This document shows positions 53,593 through 64,000 of a DNA stretch of 64,000 nucleotides, piece by piece. The notes under the pieces were generated by a model, which had not been told where the DNA came from, made no database searches, and saw only the letters and a list, made by a program, of their open reading frames with translations. This DNA comes from Dehalococcoidia bacterium (GTDB lineage: Bacteria > Chloroflexota > Dehalococcoidia > Lucifugimonadales > UBA3495). A program made the translations under genes and the position numbers. How positions within the stretch are numbered: the stretch's first letter is position 1; each line of letters starts with the position of its first letter. Location: NCBI GenBank assembly GCA_030740155.1, contig JASLXV010000085.1:46041-110040 (forward strand), read 5' to 3'.

Positions 53593-56010
53593 TCAGATTA
53601 CCACCTCTGTCCGCACCAGCTCGTCGAGCTTCTCGGCGGATAGCCCCAGGATGTCCTCGAAGACGAGGCGGTTGTGTTCTCCCTGGTTGGCCCATCCGTC
53701 GATGCGTCCCGGGGTCTCGGAAAGACCCATGGTGACGCCGGGGTACTCCACTGGCCCCGTTTCCGGGTGGTCCATGGTCGTCAGGTAGCTCCGCGCCCTC
53801 AGGTGGTGGTCGTAGACCAGGTCCTCCCCGCTCTGGACCACGCCCGACGCGATGCCAGCCTTTTGCAACGTGCGCATCACCTGCCGGGGGGTGTATTCCC
53901 GGGTCCATTCCCCAACGTGCCGGTCCAGCTCGGCGCGATTCTCAAGGCGCTGTTCGAGGCTGGCGAAGCGCGGGTCCCCGCACCAACGGGGGTCTCCCAT
54001 CACGTTCCGGAAGGCCTGCCACTCCTCCTCGGTGAAGCAGGCAATCACACACCAATCATCGTCGCCCCGGCACTGGTAGGACCCGTGGGGTGCGGCATGG
54101 GGGTGCCAGTTTCCCACCGGTTGGGCGATCCGGTCGTTTACCAAATAATCCAGGTACATGGGCCCCATCAACGAGGCCATGGCGTCGGCGTGGGAGAGGT
54201 CGACATTCTGGCCCTTGCCCGTGAGGGTGTGGTAGTGCAGGGCCGCCGTGGTTGCCAGCGTGGCATATATGGCGGCAACGTAGTCCGGCAGCACGGAATT
54301 GGGCGCCGCCGGTTCATCTGCGCCGGCATAAGACCAGATGTGATAGAGGCCCGAGAAGGCCGCCGTGGTGGCCGCGGCACCTAAATACTCGCTTCGAGGC
54401 CCCGTCATGCCGAAGGCCGGCATGTCCACCACGATGATATCGGGCTTGACGTTTCGCAGGTTCTCGTAATCCAGGCCCCATCTCTTCATGATCTTGGGGT
54501 TGAAGTTCTCCACGACCACGTCGCTGACCCGAACCAAATCCCGGAACAGTTCTTGGCCCTCGGCGGTGTTGAGGTTGATCGTGATGGCTTTCTTGTTCCG
54601 GTTCAGGCCGCCGAAGGTGACCTTCTGCTGAAGGACCACTCTCGGGTCGGGGAAGTCACGTCCTCGACGCTGGTGCGTGGCCGACTCCACCATGATTACC
54701 TCGGCCCCATGCTCTGCGAGCAAACCCGACACCTCGGGCCCGGCGATGGCCATGCCCACGTCGAGGATGCGGATTCCCTCGAGCGCCCGTTTTCCGGGTG
54801 TCAGGGGCGTGGCCGGGGGCGTCGCCGGGCGGGGCGTCCCGGCCAGCCAGGACTCCGACACCTCCCGGTTGTGCTGGCCCAAGAGGGGAGCGGTGCGCCG
54901 CACCACGCATGGGGTCTCGCTCAACTTGTAGGGGGCCCCCAGGATGAAGTGCGGGCCGACTTCAGGGTGATTTGCCTCCTGGAAGGTTCCTCGATGACGG
55001 GTCTGAGGGTCATTGAAGAACTCGCCAGGGGTGTTGATCGGCACGATAGGAATGTGGCGTCGCTGGGCCTCTTCGGATACCTCCAACTTGTCGAATTTGG
55101 CGGCGAACTCGTGGATGTAGGGATCGATGACATCGACGTTCTGTGCCCGGAAGTGGCGGTTCTCCCAGATGGAATCGTTCAGGGCCTCAGGCTTGCCCAT
55201 CCAATCGAAGAGATTGCGCCAATGCCACGGCGAGAGAATGAAGAACTCCGCGAACCCGTCTTTGCACCGGTACGCTCCGTTGGGAGCGGACCCACCCCGG
55301 GCCGAGCGTGACCCCATGCGGCTCAGCAGGTTCTCCAGCGCACTGTAGTTAACCACGATGTACTGCTGCGACGCCTGCACCTCTTGTGACGACACATCGA
55401 CGTGCTGGCCTCTTCCCGAAAGGCGCTGTTGCCGGGCGGCGATGAGCACTCCCACCGCCGTATACACCGAGGCGAGCTGGTAGCCAAGCTCATAGGGCAT
55501 GCTGAGAGGGGGCTTGTCCGCGTCGCCGGACAGGTACATGACCCCGCCCATGGCGAAGGAAACTATTTCGGGGGCTTTGTACTGGCTGTGGGGACCCGTC
55601 TGCCCAAATCCGGAGACGGAGCCCATGACCAGGCCTGGGTTGAGGGATTGGAGGGTGTCGTACCCCAGCCCCAGGGATGCCATATATCCCGGCTGGAAAC
55701 TCTCGATGACGATGTCGGCGCGTTTCACTAACTGTTTGAACGTCTCCCTATCGGCGGGGTCCGGCAGGTCGAGCTGGATACCCTTCTTGTTGCTGTTGGA
55801 GTAGAGGAAGTACAGACTGCGTTCCGGGTGGGGCACATCATCCTTGAAAGGCCCCCAGCCCCGCTCCTCGGCGCCGCCTCGCGGCTCCACCTTCACCACC
55901 TCCGCGCCCAGGTCGGCCAGGAGCCGGCCACACAATTGACCCCGGCAGTCCGCCAGGTCCAATACCCGGAGACCCTGAAGAGCAGAGTCTCCGTCTGAAG
56001 CTGAATTCAT
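53593..56010 (-). CDS. Family III CoA-transferase, fused two-domain (BbsE/BbsF-like halves)
   Basis: Two copies of L-G-RV/ILD..GAEV-K/MVE..N-NKK; APLLGQHN junction; Asp in LPDY only in the C-terminal half. Confidence 0.92.
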   Translation of the reverse strand: MNSASDGDSALQGLRVLDLADCRGQLCGRLLADLGAEVVKVEPRGGAEERGWGPFKDDVPHPERSLYFLYSNSNKKGIQLDLPDPADRETFKQLVKRADIVIESFQPGYMASLGLGYDTLQSLNPGLVMGSVSGFGQTGPHSQYKAPEIVSFAMGGVMYLSGDADKPPLSMPYELGYQLASVYTAVGVLIAARQQRLSGRGQHVDVSSQEVQASQQYIVVNYSALENLLSRMGSRSARGGSAPNGAYRCKDGFAEFFILSPWHWRNLFDWMGKPEALNDSIWENRHFRAQNVDVIDPYIHEFAAKFDKLEVSEEAQRRHIPIVPINTPGEFFNDPQTRHRGTFQEANHPEVGPHFILGAPYKLSETPCVVRRTAPLLGQHNREVSESWLAGTPRPATPPATPLTPGKRALEGIRILDVGMAIAGPEVSGLLAEHGAEVIMVESATHQRRGRDFPDPRVVLQQKVTFGGLNRNKKAITINLNTAEGQELFRDLVRVSDVVVENFNPKIMKRWGLDYENLRNVKPDIIVVDMPAFGMTGPRSEYLGAAATTAAFSGLYHIWSYAGADEPAAPNSVLPDYVAAIYATLATTAALHYHTLTGKGQNVDLSHADAMASLMGPMYLDYLVNDRIAQPVGNWHPHAAPHGSYQCRGDDDWCVIACFTEEEWQAFRNVMGDPRWCGDPRFASLEQRLENRAELDRHVGEWTREYTPRQVMRTLQKAGIASGVVQSGEDLVYDHHLRARSYLTTMDHPETGPVEYPGVTMGLSETPGRIDGWANQGEHNRLVFEDILGLSAEKLDELVRTEVVI

Positions 56011-56096
56011 GAATTCCTCCGGCCCAAGGGTTAACTAACGATGCAAAAGACCATTCGACAATCCGGCCCCGAGCCTTTGAACTACGCTGGCCGCCC

Positions 56097-56132
56097 CCCC
56101 CCTTTTGTAAAAGGGGGCAAGGGGGGATTTCG
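56097..56132. repeat. REP-like palindrome related to 33699-33734
   Basis: Reverse complement reads gcgaaatccccccttgcccccttttacaaaagggg. Confidence 0.65.
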
Positions 56133-56411
56133 CCCGCCGTAACCGCCCTGAAGGCAGCTGACAACTCAGGGGAAATCCCATCTAAAGGCCCGCCAGGTGC
56201 CCGATGCCCTTTGACCGATGAAGGGCGAGCAAATACAATTCTGCCGTTGGATTCTGTACTGGACGATTATACTGGATGCACCCATGTAATCAAGAGTTCA
56301 CCGGCACTGGACCCCGCCGAAAGCTGCGAGGCCCCTTACCAATGTCATGCGGGCTGGCGCAACACAGAGTCGCGGGAGCAATCCAGAGAACGCCCTGATG
56401 AGACAGATGCA

Positions 56412-57167
56412 ATGAACGAACAAGGGATGACGGAAGTGTTCTTCGATATCCACAACAATATTCCGAGAGAGGGTCCAGGCGACTTCGGGTCAACCCAAAA
56501 AGCATTTTCAATGCTGACGAATTTACCCAAAGAGCCTAACATTTTGGATATCGGGTGCGGTCCGGGTAAGCAGACTTTGGACTTAATCCGTCTCACTGCC
56601 GGCAAGATCAAGGCCGTTGACATGCACCAACCTTATCTGGACGCACTCAACGAAAAGGTGGCGCAGGAGGGCCTTTCTGACAGGGTTACAGCCCTGAAAG
56701 GTGACATGTTTGACCTTGGCTTCGAGGAGAGGACTTTTGACCTTATTTGGTCTGAAGGCGCCATCTACATCGTGGGTTTTGAAAAAGGGCTACGAACATG
56801 GCTACCCCTGCTCAAGAAGGGCGGTTACCTCGCCGCCACTGAAATCACATGGATCAAAAACGGTGCACCGAAAGAACCCAGGGCTTTCTGGGAAGAAGCT
56901 TACCCGGCCATGCAGGATGTCGAGGCCAACCTGAAGGTTATTCAGCAGACAGGATATCGACACATTGGGCACTTTACGATTCCAGAATCAGCCTGGTGGA
57001 ACGATTACTACAATCCTGTGGAGAAGAAGCTGGCCGTGCTCCGAGAAAAATACAGAGCAAACATTGAAGCCATGAGTGTTCTTGAAATGGAACAGAAAGA
57101 GATTGACCTGTTCAGGAAGTACTCCAATTGCTACGGCTATGTGTTCTACGTTATGCGAGTCTGTTAG
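56412..57167 (+). CDS. Class I SAM-dependent methyltransferase
   Basis: REGPG, LDIGCGPG, FDLIWSEGAIY-GFE-GL--W--LK-GG, YGYVFY; visibly more AT-rich than its neighbours. Confidence 0.9.
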   Translation: MNEQGMTEVFFDIHNNIPREGPGDFGSTQKAFSMLTNLPKEPNILDIGCGPGKQTLDLIRLTAGKIKAVDMHQPYLDALNEKVAQEGLSDRVTALKGDMFDLGFEERTFDLIWSEGAIYIVGFEKGLRTWLPLLKKGGYLAATEITWIKNGAPKEPRAFWEEAYPAMQDVEANLKVIQQTGYRHIGHFTIPESAWWNDYYNPVEKKLAVLREKYRANIEAMSVLEMEQKEIDLFRKYSNCYGYVFYVMRVC

Positions 57168-57342
57168 GCTCGGCCAAGTAGATTGTTGTCCTCGAACGGC
57201 TCGCTCAAGCAGAGCATGCACTGCGCCGCGTCCGAAGGCGGACTTCAGATTGTCAGTCCGTCTTTCATCGGCTGACTACTCAAAACCCCCCCGCGGGCTC
57301 CGACCGCAGCGCCAAGACTTCAGTCGTGAGGCCGTCTGGCCG

Positions 57343-58560
57343 TCACTCCAGCACCCCCTCGGCCGTCAAGGCGTCGATCTCTTCGTCGCCGAGGTCCAGC
57401 CACTCTCGGAGTACCGGACGAGTGTGCTCGCCGAGGAGAGGGCCCGGGGAGTGAATCCGCGGAGGCGTCCGCGAGAGTTTCCATGGCGCGCCCTCGACGG
57501 TGTGCTTCCCCACCACCGCGTGGTCCACATCCAGGAAGACCTGCCTCTCCTGGATGTGCGAGTTGCGGGTCAGTTCCAAGAGGCTGAAACTGGGAATGGC
57601 CGCGACGCCGTGGGATTGTAGGAGTTCCATCGCCTCCGTGGCGGTCCGCTGCCGCGTCCACTCGGACAGGTGGCGGTCCAGGTTCTCATGGTGGAGCCAG
57701 CGGGCTTGGGCGTCCCGGAAATTCGGGTCCGCGGTCCAGGCGGGGTTGCCCATCGCCCGGCACAGGGACTGCCACTCGCCCTCATCGGACACCGCGATGC
57801 TAATCCATTTGTCGTGCCCCTGGCACGGGTAGCAGTCGTGGGGAGCCATGAAGGGGTGCCGGTTCCCGCGGCGGGTCTGCACCCTCCCGGTCAGGCTGTA
57901 GTCCAACATCGTGTCTCCCACGACACAAGTGGCGACGTCGGAGGCGGCGAGGTCGATATACTGGCCTTTTCGGGTGTCCTGGCGTTCCAGAAGAGCCGCG
58001 ATAACCGCCATGGCAGCCATGGTCCCGGTAGCGAAGTCGAGAGGGATGCGCAGGTCGGCGGGCCGTAGTTCGGGGTAGCCGGTCAGGTGACTGGCTCCAC
58101 CGACGCCGGCGAAGATGGCGGCGTATCCGGGCAGCTTGGTATCCGGACCGCTCTGGCCCCGGGCGGAAACGGAGGCCATAACCAGCCCCGGATTGTTGGC
58201 GCTGAGTTCCTCGTAGCCCAGCCCTAGGCGCTTGGCGACCCCGGGCCGAAAGTTCTCGATCACCACGTCGGCCATCTCCGTCAACCGCTTGGCCACGGCA
58301 CGCCCCTCGGGCTTGCCCAAGTTCAGGCTGACGCTCCGCTTGTTCAGATTCATGGCGCTGAACCTCAACGAAGAATCCAGGTCGTCAGCGGATGCCTCGA
58401 CCCCCGACGCAGGACGCCGGCGCGCCCCGTCGGACCGGTGACGGCTCTCGATCTTGATGGAGTCGGCGCCGAGCATGGCGAGCAGCCCACCGGAGTAGGG
58501 ACCGGCCGCGACCCAGGTGAATTCAACCACTCGTATGCCGTCCAGAGCGGACTGGTGCAC
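57343..58560 (-). CDS. Family III CoA-transferase (BbsF-like)
   Basis: LDGIRVVEFTWVAAGP, NLNKRS, ENFRPG, IPLD, P-LGEHT. Confidence 0.92.
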   Translation of the reverse strand: MHQSALDGIRVVEFTWVAAGPYSGGLLAMLGADSIKIESRHRSDGARRRPASGVEASADDLDSSLRFSAMNLNKRSVSLNLGKPEGRAVAKRLTEMADVVIENFRPGVAKRLGLGYEELSANNPGLVMASVSARGQSGPDTKLPGYAAIFAGVGGASHLTGYPELRPADLRIPLDFATGTMAAMAVIAALLERQDTRKGQYIDLAASDVATCVVGDTMLDYSLTGRVQTRRGNRHPFMAPHDCYPCQGHDKWISIAVSDEGEWQSLCRAMGNPAWTADPNFRDAQARWLHHENLDRHLSEWTRQRTATEAMELLQSHGVAAIPSFSLLELTRNSHIQERQVFLDVDHAVVGKHTVEGAPWKLSRTPPRIHSPGPLLGEHTRPVLREWLDLGDEEIDALTAEGVLE

Positions 58561-58676
58561 TGCGATACCTCTAATCCTTACTGGAAACTAGTGCTAAATG
58601 TCGAGAAACCGGGTCACAACATCTGAACCTGAGGACTACCCCAACAGTTACGAATCAATCTAACGCTGATTTATGA

Positions 58677-59885
58677 CTAGATTATCCCATCCCGGTGGAG
58701 TAGCTCTAGCTTGTTCGGAGAATATCCGAGCCTCTCGCCCAGCACCAGTTGGTTGTGTTCGCCCAGTAGCGGGGCCGGCTGTGGCGGACGGCCCGCGCTT
58801 TCCGTCAGCACGAAGGGCAGGGCTGCATACTGTCCCGTCCCCGCCACGGGGTGTTGGATTTCCTGGAATAGGCCTCGGGCGGCGGATTGGGGGGAATTTA
58901 CCACCTCATCCGGTGTCGCCACATACCCGATGGGGCAGCCGAGTTCAAGGGCGTCCCGGTAGACTTCACCCTTCGTATGCTGGATGGCCCACTCGGCAAT
59001 GTGGCGGTTGATCTCGTCGCCGTGCCGGCACCGGGATTCGTGGGACTCGAACCGGATATCTTCGACCAGATCGAGCCGGCCCATGATCCTCGCCAGCGAG
59101 TGCCAGTGGTTGTTCTCAGCTACTGCGATGACGATGTAGCCGTCCTTACAGGGCATCATCCCGCCATAGGGGTAGGTTCTGGTGAGCCTGGTCTCCTCTT
59201 TCTCACCGCTGGCGATCCGGGCTACGATGTCGCGGTTCAACGCCAGCAGGGCCTCTTGTTTGGATACATCCACGTGCTGCCCTTCCCCCGTTAATCGGCC
59301 GGCGAAGAGGGCGGCGACCGTGGCCAATGCGGCGCTCCCGCCAACTTCGTAATCGCCCATGTGCCCGCCTCCGGTCATGGGCGGTAGCTCAAGGGATTCC
59401 GGGCCGCTCTGGAGGAGGTAGCCGTCACCCCCGGAGTGGTAGCTGTTGATGGGATAGGCCCGGTAGTCGCGGTACGGGCCGGTCTGGCCAAAGGGTGTGA
59501 TCGAGGTAACCACCAGGCGGCGATTGATCTGGCTCAGCCGCGCATATCCCAGACCCAAGGCGTCCAGCGTGCCGGGCGAGGTATCTTCCAGCAGGACATC
59601 CGCCGTCTCGATAAGCTGCTCGAAGATGCGCCGGCCCTTGGGGGTATCCAGGCTCAAGGTGATGCCCAGCTTGCCGGCGTTGGCGTAGAAGTAGAGGCAA
59701 CTCTTTTCAGGATGCGGGGATTCCCCCACGAATGGGCCCTCGTGGCGGGCCGGGTCACCGGCCGGGGGCTCCGCCTTGACCACCTCCGCTCCCAGCGCGG
59801 CGAGCATCTTGCCACAATACGGACCCGCCGCCAACTGGCAATACTCCAGCACGCGAAACCGGCTAAGACACGAATATACGGCCAA
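58677..59885 (-). CDS. Family III CoA-transferase (BbsE-like N-terminus)
   Basis: AGPYCGK-LA-LGAEV-K-EPP-GD-AR--GPF, NAGK, SITPFGQTGPY, GQHVDVS, APLLGEHN. Confidence 0.92.
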   Translation of the reverse strand: MAVYSCLSRFRVLEYCQLAAGPYCGKMLAALGAEVVKAEPPAGDPARHEGPFVGESPHPEKSCLYFYANAGKLGITLSLDTPKGRRIFEQLIETADVLLEDTSPGTLDALGLGYARLSQINRRLVVTSITPFGQTGPYRDYRAYPINSYHSGGDGYLLQSGPESLELPPMTGGGHMGDYEVGGSAALATVAALFAGRLTGEGQHVDVSKQEALLALNRDIVARIASGEKEETRLTRTYPYGGMMPCKDGYIVIAVAENNHWHSLARIMGRLDLVEDIRFESHESRCRHGDEINRHIAEWAIQHTKGEVYRDALELGCPIGYVATPDEVVNSPQSAARGLFQEIQHPVAGTGQYAALPFVLTESAGRPPQPAPLLGEHNQLVLGERLGYSPNKLELLHRDGII

Positions 59886-59977
59886 ATTCCTCCAAGCTCA
59901 TGGGCGGGTGGCGTGACGCCCAGGTCACGGCACCCGGTTACGTTATCGGGATTCTACTGAGCAACCGAAAATGGCGG

Positions 59978-61282
59978 TTACCGATGCGCGGCGTATCCGG
60001 TACGAGTCAGGAACTCCGTGGCCCTGGCGAACTTCTCGCCCACCCTGGCTCCCTCCAACTCCCTGGGCGACCGTGGCAACTGGACCGGGCCGTGCTCCCT
60101 GGAGGGCAGGATAACCGTGCCGCGAGAGGGCGCGACCACTTCGCCTCGCTGGTTGGTCAGGTTCATCTCCACGTCCACCAGGCATCCCAGCTCCGGCGAT
60201 GTGTACTTGTCAACGACATTCCCGCTGAACCGTATCACGTCGCCGATGTAGACGAACCGGCGTATCTGGTCGTACTCGCGCCACAGCCAGGCGTCGTCCC
60301 CCATCCAGTTGGTCAGATAGTTGCAAACCCAGGCGTTGCGCTGCCAGCCGTAGTCGTAAGCGTAGGGGTTGCCGATGCTCCGGGCCCAGGCGTCCTCCCA
60401 GTGCACTCGCTCGACCACGTCGGGCACGCCGAACTCGTTGAGCGAAAAGGCCCGCGGATGGCGCTTGTAACTCTGGTGGCGAATCTTGTGGGCCTTGGCG
60501 AAGCGTGCCTCCGACCCCTGGAGGAAGCAGAGCAGGTCGGTGAGCAAGATAGGACCCTTGACCATGGGCCTCATCTCGTCTCCCACCTGCACGTCCTCCC
60601 AATAGCGAGGCAGGGCGCCCCGGACCTCCTCGTTTTCGGTCAGCTCATCGATCTCTTTTAGCATCTCGGGGGTATAGTAAGGCTGTTTGATATCCATGTA
60701 CTTGCGTTGCTTGCCGGCGGCCACCGCGCGTTGCGTCCGGGTGGTCCAGTCGCGCCATATCGCCACCAGCTCGTTCCGCTGGTTCCAGAAGATGCCCCGC
60801 ACCCGGGATATGATCACGGACCGCCCGCTGAAGGCGCTGTTTTCCTTTACATCGACGCCGACGATGGGGAAGCCGATTCGAACAATCTTGTCTCCCTCAC
60901 GAACCGGATTGTAGAATTCGATGTCGTTGCCTGAATAGAACCCGTGGATGCCGGCCATGGCGCCGCCCCTGCCCCGGTCCCGCACCTCCTTGGGTATCTC
61001 GGGTATCTCCTCGGTGGAGCCCATGTTGTAAATGTAGGTTGGAGGGGCGATTAGGCCGCCCCACCGGGTCTTCTTGGCGTACTCGTAGTCGGTGAAGAGG
61101 GGGTTGTCATCGCCGAGACCGTAAGCCCAGTGCCGCATAGTATCTCGGGACGCGACCTCAACCCAGGGTCGGTCCCAGGCCAGCGTAGGCGCGGCCACGC
61201 CGATCCGGGCCCGCGCGGCCTCGACCAGCTCGTCGGTAATCATCTCGCCGACGTCCAGTTTTTGCTGCTCTTGAGTGGCCAT
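59978..61282 (-). CDS. Double hot-dog MaoC/FAS1-like acyl-CoA dehydratase
   Basis: AYGLGDDNPLF, APPT, YNPVREGD, RYWEDVQVGDE, VHWE, YDYG, NWMGDD, YIGD, NQRG; RBS AAGGAGG. Confidence 0.88.
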   Translation of the reverse strand: MATQEQQKLDVGEMITDELVEAARARIGVAAPTLAWDRPWVEVASRDTMRHWAYGLGDDNPLFTDYEYAKKTRWGGLIAPPTYIYNMGSTEEIPEIPKEVRDRGRGGAMAGIHGFYSGNDIEFYNPVREGDKIVRIGFPIVGVDVKENSAFSGRSVIISRVRGIFWNQRNELVAIWRDWTTRTQRAVAAGKQRKYMDIKQPYYTPEMLKEIDELTENEEVRGALPRYWEDVQVGDEMRPMVKGPILLTDLLCFLQGSEARFAKAHKIRHQSYKRHPRAFSLNEFGVPDVVERVHWEDAWARSIGNPYAYDYGWQRNAWVCNYLTNWMGDDAWLWREYDQIRRFVYIGDVIRFSGNVVDKYTSPELGCLVDVEMNLTNQRGEVVAPSRGTVILPSREHGPVQLPRSPRELEGARVGEKFARATEFLTRTGYAAHR

Positions 61283-62070
61283 GGTAAGCCTCCTTCTTGA
61301 CGGTGTTGGCCTGGCCTGGCCCCAATTGCACCGAAGCTCTCTGAATCCACGCCGTCCGCCCTCGCCCGCCGCTGAACCGCCTCCAAAACCGCCAAGAGCA
61401 GGCGTAGGCTGGGGTTCAACGAAGTGAACGAACAGTCCCAGCTCTAGCTTGAAATGCTCTAACGCGGCTGAGATGGAGCCTTCAAGCCGGCCGTACTGAA
61501 GACTGGCCCAGGACGTTCATGGTAGCCTTCAGGTCATTCCGGAGCCAATCTTCCCACCGGAATGGCCAACCTTTCGTACCGGTAAGAGTTTCTTGCGGAA
61601 ACGAATCAAGAGTCCAGTGGCCGTCTTGCCATTTGGCTCCCCGGAGCTGTCGCCAGGAGGGCCTCCCGGTAATCCGTTGGACGCCCCTTTCCCAGCTTAT
61701 GCAAGGAAGCCGGTGGCCGCGCCGGCCGGTGCGCAACCGAAGTTATCCCTGAGTGGCAGCGAATCTTGCCCGAGTCTTGGCCCGTACCTGAGTTAGCCGA
61801 ATAACGCGGTGACCCGGACTCTCCCTGAGTCACCAGCAAGCGAAAGGCCAGCACCGGGCAATTCTACCCTATCAATATCCGGAATGCCATAGGCGTTCTT
61901 CCCGGCTGGTGTGAGCGGGCAGTGTTCGACTTAAGCGCTCATTCTCTATACCTCACAGTCGTACGCTGCTAACCTTATTATTTCACGTGTTCAAGGGAAC
62001 TAGCGCCCTAGAATCCGCTTCCACCACGCCCGTTTTGGACGGACGGCGGGTTCTCGGTTCGCGCAGATCG

Positions 62071-62344
62071 GAGGTCTTCAACACCGACCAAGGGCGGCAG
62101 TGCACCAGCGAGGGGTTCACCGGGCTCCTTGAGTAGTACGATGTCAGGATCAGCTTGGACGGGAAGGGGCGCTATACCGACAACATCTTCGTGGAAAGAC
62201 TGTGGCGCACCGATAAGTACGAGGAGGCCTACCTAAGAGCCTACTCCAACGGAAGGGAGGCTAGAGCCGGGTTCGACGCTTACTTCTTCTACAATACCCA
62301 AAGGCCCCATCAAGCTTTGGACTATCGGACACCAGCCGAGGTGC
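62071..62344 (+). mobile_element. IS3-family transposase C-terminal relic (internal TAG at 62134-62136)
   Basis: EVFNTDQG-Q-TS--F---LE*YDVRIS-DGKGR--DNIFVERLWRT-KYEE-YL..YN--RPHQAL-YRTPAEV. Confidence 0.88.
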
Positions 62345-62377
62345 TGTCAAGGGCGCTTGAAAACTGTACCGCCTGTC
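62345..62377. mobile_element. IS21-family-like terminal inverted repeat (one end only)
   Basis: TGTCAAGGGCGCTTGAAAACTGTACC starts where IS3 similarity stops and resembles IS21-type ends (TGT....G..TTGAAAA.TG.AC). Confidence 0.55.
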
Positions 62378-64000
62378 TGTCGATGACATACGATTAGGTC
62401 AGTAGCTAACGGTCGAGGGAAAATGTCAGTCATGGAAGGACTGACGTTGACCCAAAGAGAACAAGCGAGGTTAGGAGTTTTGAATCGGGTGTTACAGGGG
62501 TTTATGGGGGTAGGCGAGGCGGCCCACCTCCTAGGGGTGAGCGAACGCCATGCCTGGCGAATGTTGGCGGCATATCGGGAGGAAGGTGCCGCCGCGTTGG
62601 CCCATGGGAACCGGGGCCGTCGACCAGCCAACACCATCCCCGAGGAGATCCGGCAGCAGGTGATCACACTGGCCGGCACGCGCTACGCGAGGCTGAACCA
62701 GACGCATTTCACCGACCTGCTGGAGGAGCGTGAGGGCGTGATCCTGGCGCGCTCCACCGTGCGCAACATACTGGTGGGAGCCGGGATAGGCAGCCCCCGG
62801 CGGCGCCGACCCCCGCGCCATCGCGTCCGTCGAGAGCGCTTCCCCCAGGAAGGGATGTTGGTGCAGATCGACGGGAGTCACCATGACTGGCTGGGAGGCC
62901 GGGGCCCGGTGATGGCGTTGCTCTTGGCCGTGGACGACGCCACGGGCACGGTGCCATGGAGCCTGTTTCGTTACCAAGAGGACACTTACGGCTATTTCCT
63001 CCTGTTCCAGGGCATCCTCGAGCGCCGGGGGATTCCCCTGGCGGTGTACAGTGACCGCCACGCCGTCTTCCAGTTCACGGCCACAGCCCGGTGCCCGCTG
63101 GAGGACCATGTGGCCAGGGACCACGGCCTCACGCAATTCGGCCGGGCGATGGGGGAGCTGGGGGTGACGCAGATCTTTGCCCGATCACCGGAGGCGAAAG
63201 GGCGCGTCGAGCGGGCAGCGGGCACATTGCAGGATAGGCTGGTGGCCGAGCTCCGGCTGGCGGGGGCCAGCACCTTAGATGAGGCCAACTGTGTGCTCTG
63301 GGAGTTCTTGCCCCGGTACAACCAGCGCTTCGGCGTGCCAGCGGCCCACCCGGCCAGTGCTTACCGCCCAATGGACCCGGACCTGGACCTGGCTGGGGTC
63401 CTGTGTTTCAAGCATAACCGGAAAGTGGCGAGGGACAACACGGTGAAATACCAGTGGAGACCCGTGCAACTGCTCCCCGGACCGGACCGCCCCAGCTATG
63501 CGGGGACACGGGTGGAGGTGCAGGAGCGGTTGGATGGCCGCTTGGTTGTGAGCTACCAGGGCCGGATCATCCCCAGCCGGGAAGCACCCCCGAGGCCGTC
63601 AGTTCTCCGGATGGCCAACGGCATCCGGCCTTGGGAACCCACCACTACCCTTCAAAGCCTCGCGATGGGGGTGACCCCCGTTGGTGCCGGGGATCACCCC
63701 CATCGCGAGGGAGCTGCCGCAGGCAGCTATCGGCAGGCTACCAATGGAGTAGCTCGTCGCCTTGGCAGGCCACGTTCCCCAGCCCCACCAACAGGACAGA
63801 GCCGACGGCCCACCCCGCGTCAACAGGCACGCTGGAGGGCCGTACAGAAGGCCAAGCGCCGTGGACTGGGCCTTCGTGCTATCGCCAGGGAACTCGGTAT
63901 CCATCGGAACACTGCCCGCAAGTATGCTGCGGCTACCATTCCGCCCACCTATCCTAAACACCAGCCCAGCGTAACCACCGGAGTAAACGCAACTGACATA
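62378..64000 (+). mobile_element. ISNCY/IS1202-like insertion sequence, truncated by the window edge
   Basis: Left end TGTCGATGACATACGATTAGGTCAG..GAAAATGTCAGT; complementary ACTGACAT at 63992-63999 marks the probable start of the right end. Confidence 0.8.
62432..64000 (+). CDS. ISNCY/IS1202-type DDE transposase with an extra C-terminal HTH (no stop within the window)
   Basis: My translation is open throughout: MEGLTLTQREQARL..AAHLLGVSERHAWR..HGNRGR..VQIDGSHHDW..VDDATG..YSDRH..TQFGRAM..SPEAKGRVER--GTLQDRL..GLGLRAIARELGIHRNTARKY. Confidence 0.92.
   Translation, partial: MEGLTLTQREQARLGVLNRVLQGFMGVGEAAHLLGVSERHAWRMLAAYREEGAAALAHGNRGRRPANTIPEEIRQQVITLAGTRYARLNQTHFTDLLEEREGVILARSTVRNILVGAGIGSPRRRRPPRHRVRRERFPQEGMLVQIDGSHHDWLGGRGPVMALLLAVDDATGTVPWSLFRYQEDTYGYFLLFQGILERRGIPLAVYSDRHAVFQFTATARCPLEDHVARDHGLTQFGRAMGELGVTQIFARSPEAKGRVERAAGTLQDRLVAELRLAGASTLDEANCVLWEFLPRYNQRFGVPAAHPASAYRPMDPDLDLAGVLCFKHNRKVARDNTVKYQWRPVQLLPGPDRPSYAGTRVEVQERLDGRLVVSYQGRIIPSREAPPRPSVLRMANGIRPWEPTTTLQSLAMGVTPVGAGDHPHREGAAAGSYRQATNGVARRLGRPRSPAPPTGQSRRPTPRQQARWRAVQKAKRRGLGLRAIARELGIHRNTARKYAAATIPPTYPKHQPSVTTGVNATDI

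Follow-up and report, generated by a model that had tools for sequence, protein, structure and literature searches.

The window analyzed here, a 64,000-nucleotide stretch of a Dehalococcoidia genome, closes with a transposase gene whose C-terminus carries a helix-turn-helix (HTH) like that of the IS21 transposase IstA, and the element that encodes it lies inside an IS21-like end. This raises the question of whether the HTH is a captured targeting domain that steers insertion to IS21 ends, as a sequence-only reading of the locus had proposed. Our best explanation is that this is an IS1202-family element whose C-terminal HTH would read the box bound by IstA HTH-1 and would set a 7-bp target duplication 12 bp away, with the C-terminal tail serving as a modular target selector. 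We give this reading a probability of about 0.8.

The element is a 1,666-bp member of the IS1202 family (ISNCY) on the forward strand. Its size falls within the family range of 1,320–1,990 bp, and it has a single ORF. The window stops at the end of contig C85 (position 64000) and the downstream sequence of this copy lies beyond that contig. The last 141, 97, and ~20 bases of the window recur on contigs C59, C12, and C8, which supplied the right end. The left end had been placed at the TGT at 62378, and both the right end (length 1,666 bp) and a read-depth boundary at the same base agree with it. An alternative left end at 62374 was ruled out because only 62378 fits the spacing of TGT, 12 bases, and repeat as well as the depth step. 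The left terminal inverted repeat (62378–62402) is identical to the right one at 16 of 25 bases, and the ends read TGT...ACA, as in the IS1202 family. A subterminal repeat near each end is a further feature of the family. On the left it occupies 62417–62429 and, judging from the family, is probably a second transposase-binding repeat; the same motif is present at both ends and in paralogs. The inner repeat of the right end begins at 63993–64000, and the remaining 43 bp are found on C59, C12, C8, and L195–L199. In two runs the element was covered ~9–10 times as deeply as its flank, a contig-based value that gives a rough copy number only. The carriers of the exact element were marine metagenomes, and the named relatives were mostly Dehalococcoidia among the matches listed. 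The same genome also holds solo ends of related IS1202 elements, a left one at C77:28259–28298 and a right one at C32:18830–18880, with no transposase beside either.

The ORF runs from 62423 (a second ATG at 62432 is the likely start) to the window edge and scored 390 bits against the ISNCY model NF033594, which has a cut-off of 250. The family named for it in the earlier reading was right, but the gene is not complete as had been stated, since its last two codons lie outside the window. The full transposase has 528 aa in L195, a metagenome contig that shares the same 300-nt left flank. This is slightly above the ~400–500 aa of the IS1202 family, owing to the tail. The catalytic triad is D150/D211/E263, with D171-D172 between the first two aspartates and Q270 seven residues after the glutamate, in line with the IS1202-family rule. 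AlphaFold predicted an N-terminal HTH pair, a DDE domain, a beta-barrel, a disordered linker (residues 401–459, 63623–63799), and a confident three-helix HTH (residues 465–503, 63815–63931). The linker had a pLDDT below 50 and was unconserved in 65 homologs, and the C-terminal helices had a pLDDT of 83–94. The top fold matches of the predicted transposase were IstA and TnsB. A separate feature of the linker-coding DNA is a 23-bp inverted repeat (63658–63710, 96% complementary). No stem longer than 10 bp was present in the 9 relatives checked, so this repeat is specific to the window's element.

An IstA-like HTH after a low-complexity linker had been claimed, and several results confirm it. The peptide is present, residues 476–515 align with the N-terminal part of NF033546, the model for IS21 transposases, and the only PDB sequence matches of the C-terminal HTH were to residues 10–48 (HTH-1) of IS5376 IstA. 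In the structure of that protein, R31 and K32 of HTH-1 make contact with CS2, the inner of the conserved boxes in every terminal repeat (PMC10122671); R495 and N496 of our HTH align with these two residues. The element is not itself an IS21 member. Its transposase reached 42.5 bits with the IS21 model (cut-off 160) through the HTH only, and it has a single ORF where the IS21 family has istA and an istB ATPase gene between tandem-repeat ends.

The DNA into which the element inserted is also mobile. Positions 62352–62377 are identical at 26 of 26 bases to the sequence directly before the istA start on contig C9, and 62345–62355 is the terminal 11-mer of IS21-type ends on C37, C42, and C59 of the same genome; the suggested IS21 origin of 62345–62377 is thereby borne out. 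This flank comprises the IS21-type terminal heptamer TGTCAAG (62345–62351), a 19-bp terminal repeat unit identical to that before istA on C9 (62352–62370), and the presumed left copy of a 7-bp target duplication (62371–62377). Seven base pairs is the length found in the clade, and the same 7 bp abut the right end of the element in L196; they are absent from all three right-end junctions in the assembly (C59, C12, and C8). The inner GTACC box of the repeat unit (62366–62370) would correspond to the CS2 read by IstA HTH-1, following the assignment in PMC10122671. Upstream of the IS21 end and cut by it is what is left of an IS3-family transposase gene, its broken 3' part on the forward strand (62060–62344, left boundary approximate and read from the sequence; rve_3, E 4.6e-12; NF033516). 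IS3 ends resembling this remnant continue differently on C12 and C24. The whole, 62060–62377 plus the element, is a three-layer nest of IS3 remnant, IS21 end, and IS1202 element.

The locus is polymorphic, since in run X20 a contig over the upstream flank passes into a second IS21 repeat without the element, and in L198 the same outer flank is joined to a different IS21 end variant. The end seen in the window may be a recombinant between two copies. When junctions of the identical element were sorted by eye in several assemblies, five of the six distinct left junctions were IS21-type and one was IS3-type; the eight right junctions were IS21-type (4), IS3-type (1), or other (3). Both IS3-type junctions carry the target box, described below, in register. 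The identical element was seen in both orientations at three target sites, with the two orientations about equally frequent. The window junction has the clade's minority orientation, and the next box expected from C9 is weak.

A survey of relatives allowed elements with and without the HTH to be compared. Relatives were present in at least 26 of 61 and at least 81 of 401 genomes (24 or 3 candidates scored per genome), and 79 and 80 further loci with relatives came from the best 80 of 396 and the best 80 of 489. From the top of the relative lists 160 regions were fetched, and junctions were deduplicated on 25 bp. The 382 transposase starts yielded 367 with a full core: 222 carried the HTH, 87 ended in a C-terminal P..HPW(R/K) peptide (HPW-tailed), and 58 had other tails. 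The matrix used to find ends failed on distant elements, so most HPW loci outside Chloroflexota gave no junction. Relatives without the HTH resemble the HTH-bearing elements in their ends and were found in several copies flanked by duplications. As these relatives are mobile with such ends, the HTH is dispensable for the element's own ends, and the idea that it serves only these was not borne out.

IS21 ends beside junctions were called from proteins only, as an istA start pointing away from the element or an istB end pointing towards it within 350 nt; flanks shorter than 400 nt were dropped. For HTH-carrying (HTH+) elements, IS21 ends were found at 55 of the 160 left junctions and at 4 of the 175 on the right; for HPW-tailed elements, they were found at none of the 54 left and 40 right junctions. 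The counts are underestimates, as only 6 istB seeds were used, and the Fisher p of 1e-8 ignores kinship of the elements. Adjacency to IS21 ends was seen in 30 of 73 HTH+ lineages at 90% DNA identity and in 12 of 21 at 75%. Tabulated in this way, the flanks support the proposed link between the HTH and insertion at IS21 ends. The sites, though, lie inside the IS21 terminal repeats and not next to them, as had been supposed. The targeting is a preference and is not exclusive: of the 18 copies in G044, 5 are in contact with an IS21 end and 13 are not. Such copies, along with the many that lie within genes of other ISs and lack a clear box, would be expected if insertion were near-random or favored bent, A/T-flanked DNA, with copies in mobile DNA surviving selection and the HTH being a neutral or regulatory passenger. 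IS21 ends are indeed bent in the IstA complex (PMC10122671). Selection cannot, however, account for the lack of IS21 ends at all 94 junctions of HTH-less relatives, which came from the same searches, nor for a one-base register, a 64:6 orientation bias, or covariation of helix and box, and we consider this explanation highly improbable.

The register became visible from the target duplications outward. Among the 61 HTH+ elements with a duplication, it was 7 bp in 48 and 5–6 bp in 10. A length of 7 bp is outside those of the described IS1202 subgroups (5–6, 15–17, and 27–28 bp). No matching duplication was found in 108 of 169 HTH+ elements with both ends located, putatively because of recombination between copies or miscalled ends. 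Outward from the left end, the HTH+ consensus consists of the 7-bp duplication, 12 bp, and then a box of the type G(T/G/A)(A/C)CC after an A/T run. The box was at outward offset 19 in 64 of 167 HTH+ left junctions, with 8 each at offsets 18 and 20, compared to 6 of 180 right junctions and 0 of 73 HPW left junctions; this loose pattern was picked after inspection of the data and has a genome background of 2.1% per position. From the right end, distances to the IS21-like terminus peaked at 9, 32–33, and 56 bp; these peaks took in 56 of the 160 junctions, against 1.8% in the control, and their spacing is the IS21 repeat period. A relation between linker length and orientation was suggestive only. 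No dif-like consensus emerged from the 167 HTH+ left flanks, and the flank in the window is an IS21 repeat, not a XerC site 5–6 bp away.

A held-out test was conducted with a matrix from 35 IS21-labelled sites, applied to 70 left flanks without an IS21 gene or end signature. The box was in register in 15 of the 70 (z 8.8), with 6 at -1 and 0–2 at any other offset; the other 55 scored below the matrix threshold, and some of the 70 may be unrecognized IS ends. Some of the sites in register were inside long ORFs. A box in register outside IS21 indicates that the signal is the DNA box and not the IS21 element as such. The result also bears on the idea that IstA protein sitting on IS21 ends acts as a dock for the transposase, in which case the HTH would mimic a protein contact and would not read DNA. 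A bound IstA could give a fixed register, HTH-1 of IstA is extensively engaged in protein contacts within the tetramer (PMC10122671), and published work proposes contact with XerC for the sister subgroup ISAba32/ISAjo2. Against docking, the box by itself keeps its register where neither an IS21 gene nor an end signature is present, at some sites inside ORFs, and IstA would cover the target bases. We regard docking as unlikely, and direct DNA reading by the HTH appears to be the likeliest mechanism. Separately, six HTH+ elements (L040, L111, L197, L303, L306, and L281) lie at the very tip of ends that we take to be IS3-type, with an internal GTACC/GGTCC box in the same register.

If the HTH reads the box, its recognition helix and the box should vary together. 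Of the 23 HTH clusters, 18 had a box type that matched the class of their recognition helix and 5 did not (permutation p 0.003). The HR.. class had a G(T/G)ACC box in 44 of 49 cases, the SRN class TGA(C/G)CC in 13 of 14, and the RD/KN..GKY class TAGG(A/C)CA in 8 of 10. Each class adjoins the IstA subfamily with the most similar helix, and three IstA types were confirmed.

Among the best 150 of 390 matches to the HTH, most came from this same clade, as C-terminal fragments. The nearest cousin found was inside an ISL3 transposase; at L025:46–1530, an ISL3 transposase has an internal HTH of nearly the same type, followed by a second, IstA-like HTH. The first helix is common to all tails and to the ISL3-internal HTH and is missing from IstA. 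That all tails have it in common suggests one capture followed by retuning. An HTH tree (23 ISNCY, 15 IstA, and 1 ISL3) had supports mostly below 70, left the donor undecided between IstA and another source, and did not separate the number of captures. In a tree of the cores (FastTree, midpoint root), the HTH clade and the Xer clade were each nested among HPW-tailed elements. The HTH+ elements are thus one clade, in which core and tail are confounded. As the two are inherited together, the core could carry the specificity, in its catalytic part or in the beta-barrel, and the HTH could bind the element's own ends or regulate the element. We find this hard to credit, because the structural homolog of the HTH reads this very target box, and the element's own ends are without the box and are common to mobile HTH-less relatives.

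The HPW-tailed relatives insert directly upstream of sigma70 -35 boxes. TTGACA (up to 2 mismatches) directly followed the duplication on the left-end side at 22 of 24 intact sites, and a -10-like TA...T lay 16–18 bp further at 19 of 24. The TTGACA pattern has a background of 0.09% and was found at 0 of 59 sites of the HTH class. Duplications at HPW sites were 5–7 or 15–18 bp, about one helical turn apart. A -35 box also adjoined a Paenibacillus copy and two of three ISEsa1-type plasmid copies; no promoter was found at the junction of the third plasmid copy (L419) or of HPW site L186. Complex prediction for the HPW tail with sigma70 region 4 scored 0.02 (mark, 0.32), which is evidence neither way. 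HPW-tailed loci with the left end facing a promoter include one in the genome of the window (C22:56–1417, L379) as well as L080–L085, L315–L341, L415, L416, and L420.

Other tails were associated with other sites. Acinetobacter loci with a different tail served as a positive control, and the known dif-like sites were recovered. A sister class of 520–547 aa (L008, L346–L348, L351–L355, and L362) has a resolvase-like C-terminal HTH (PF02796, E 0.03), and a CCAGAAGG-n3/4-CCTTTTGG palindrome was seen by eye 10–21 bp from ~8 of 20 junctions. This class possibly hunts res sites; a motif search for serine-resolvase genes in 10 flank pairs beside it found none, with one doubtful match. On balance we favor a wider view, with less assurance than for the HTH+ clade, in which IS1202-family transposases are single-protein modular site hunters with the C-terminal tail as a plug-in address. 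In Chloroflexota, Bacillota, and Enterobacterales, the ancestral HPW tail would direct insertion to the DNA immediately ahead of housekeeping promoters, probably via promoter-bound RNA polymerase. Derived tails would lead to Xer sites, to IS21 ends, with the helix retuned from one IS21 subfamily to another, or to a palindrome that the resolvase-like HTH reads, and exchange of tails would reprogram insertion at one-base register.

For the element in the window, the proposed mechanism is as follows. The N-terminal HTH pair would bind the element's own ends, as expected from the family. The C-terminal HTH on its flexible linker would read (A/T-rich)G(T/G)ACC, or the variant of its subgroup, which is the IstA HTH-1 box in IS21 repeats. 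Tethering through the linker would then set strand transfer and produce the observed pattern, in which 12 bp separate the box from the 7-bp duplication, mostly at the left end. IS21 ends carry the best boxes, and carry them repeatedly, which would lead to insertion within the end at positions 3–9, between its first and second repeats, or a repeat beyond that. Weaker boxes, found in genes and IS3-type ends, would serve as well. As IstA needs two complete repeats (PMC10122671), insertion probably cripples the IS21 end, and it would cost the host little. The HTH would have taken the place of an older HPW tail, with the Xer-site hunters representing a third tail. A circle intermediate is plausible; ISKpn21, another IS1202-family member, forms circles (PMC5001619).

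Among known systems, the ISAba32/ISAjo2 subgroup, which hunts dif/pdif sites (Siguier et al., 10.1101/2022.12.17.520857; Harmer et al., PMC10132070), shares the transposase family and the layout of the ends, inserts in a set orientation in which its left end faces the target, and likewise uses a single targeting protein. It differs in targeting Xer sites and not an IS21 repeat box, in a duplication of 5–6 bp instead of 7 bp, and in lacking the folded HTH tail found here. The available text of these papers calls the C-terminus only "non-conserved" or "C-terminal domain", reports Xer targeting only with its mechanism left open, and gives no target for other subgroups. HPW-tailed relatives with 15–17 bp duplications fit the ISTde1 subgroup by duplication length and host range; that subgroup was published, in the text available, without a detected target, whereas the relatives here abut sigma70 -35 boxes. 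The element in the window has the features of the IS1202 family and belongs to none of the three described subgroups (ISAba32, ISTde1, and IS1202). IS21 IstA (IS5376; PDB 8b4h, 8q4d) has the matching HTH-1 and a similar IstA/TnsB-like overall fold. In IstA, however, HTH-1 is N-terminal and binds the donor ends, while the HTH here is C-terminal and single, appears to choose the target, and works with no IstB.

Other targeted elements divide the labor differently. IS1111 elements combine a DEDD enzyme with a guide RNA, res hunters are multi-gene transposons, and the selectors of Tn7 are separate proteins that act through TnsC. Here, in contrast, one DDE protein has a fused reader, and the selector is the transposase tail. 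The likeness lies elsewhere: IS4321/IS5075 (IS1111 group), which target Tn21 terminal repeats, and Tn5053-type res-site hunters also home on parts of other mobile elements (reference titles in PMC11187229). Tn7-like transposons, with dedicated target selectors of which some target CRISPR repeats (PMC11837452), also place exchangeable targeting modules on a TnsB-like transposase.

Our literature search, which was mostly outside subscription journals, returned nothing on IS1202-family targeting of IS21 ends or promoters. Promoter-adjacent insertion of HPW-tailed relatives and the tail as a swappable selector (promoter, Xer site, or IS21 end) look new. If true, the model would give IS1202-family elements a mechanism for target choice and would supply targets for subgroups published without any. 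One transposon would parasitize the ends of another by reusing its DNA-reading fold, with signs that helix follows box from one IS21 subfamily to the next. At ~500 aa, a lone transposase whose natural reader can be exchanged and fixes insertion to one base would be a far smaller targeted integrase than Tn7 or CAST. The promoter hunters imply a safe-harbor strategy in which the promoter is kept and upstream regulation is altered, including on enterobacterial plasmids.

Elsewhere in the window, upstream of the nest, 53593–61282 holds a run of ORFs that, judged from sequence, resemble class III CoA-transferases and a MaoC-like dehydratase.
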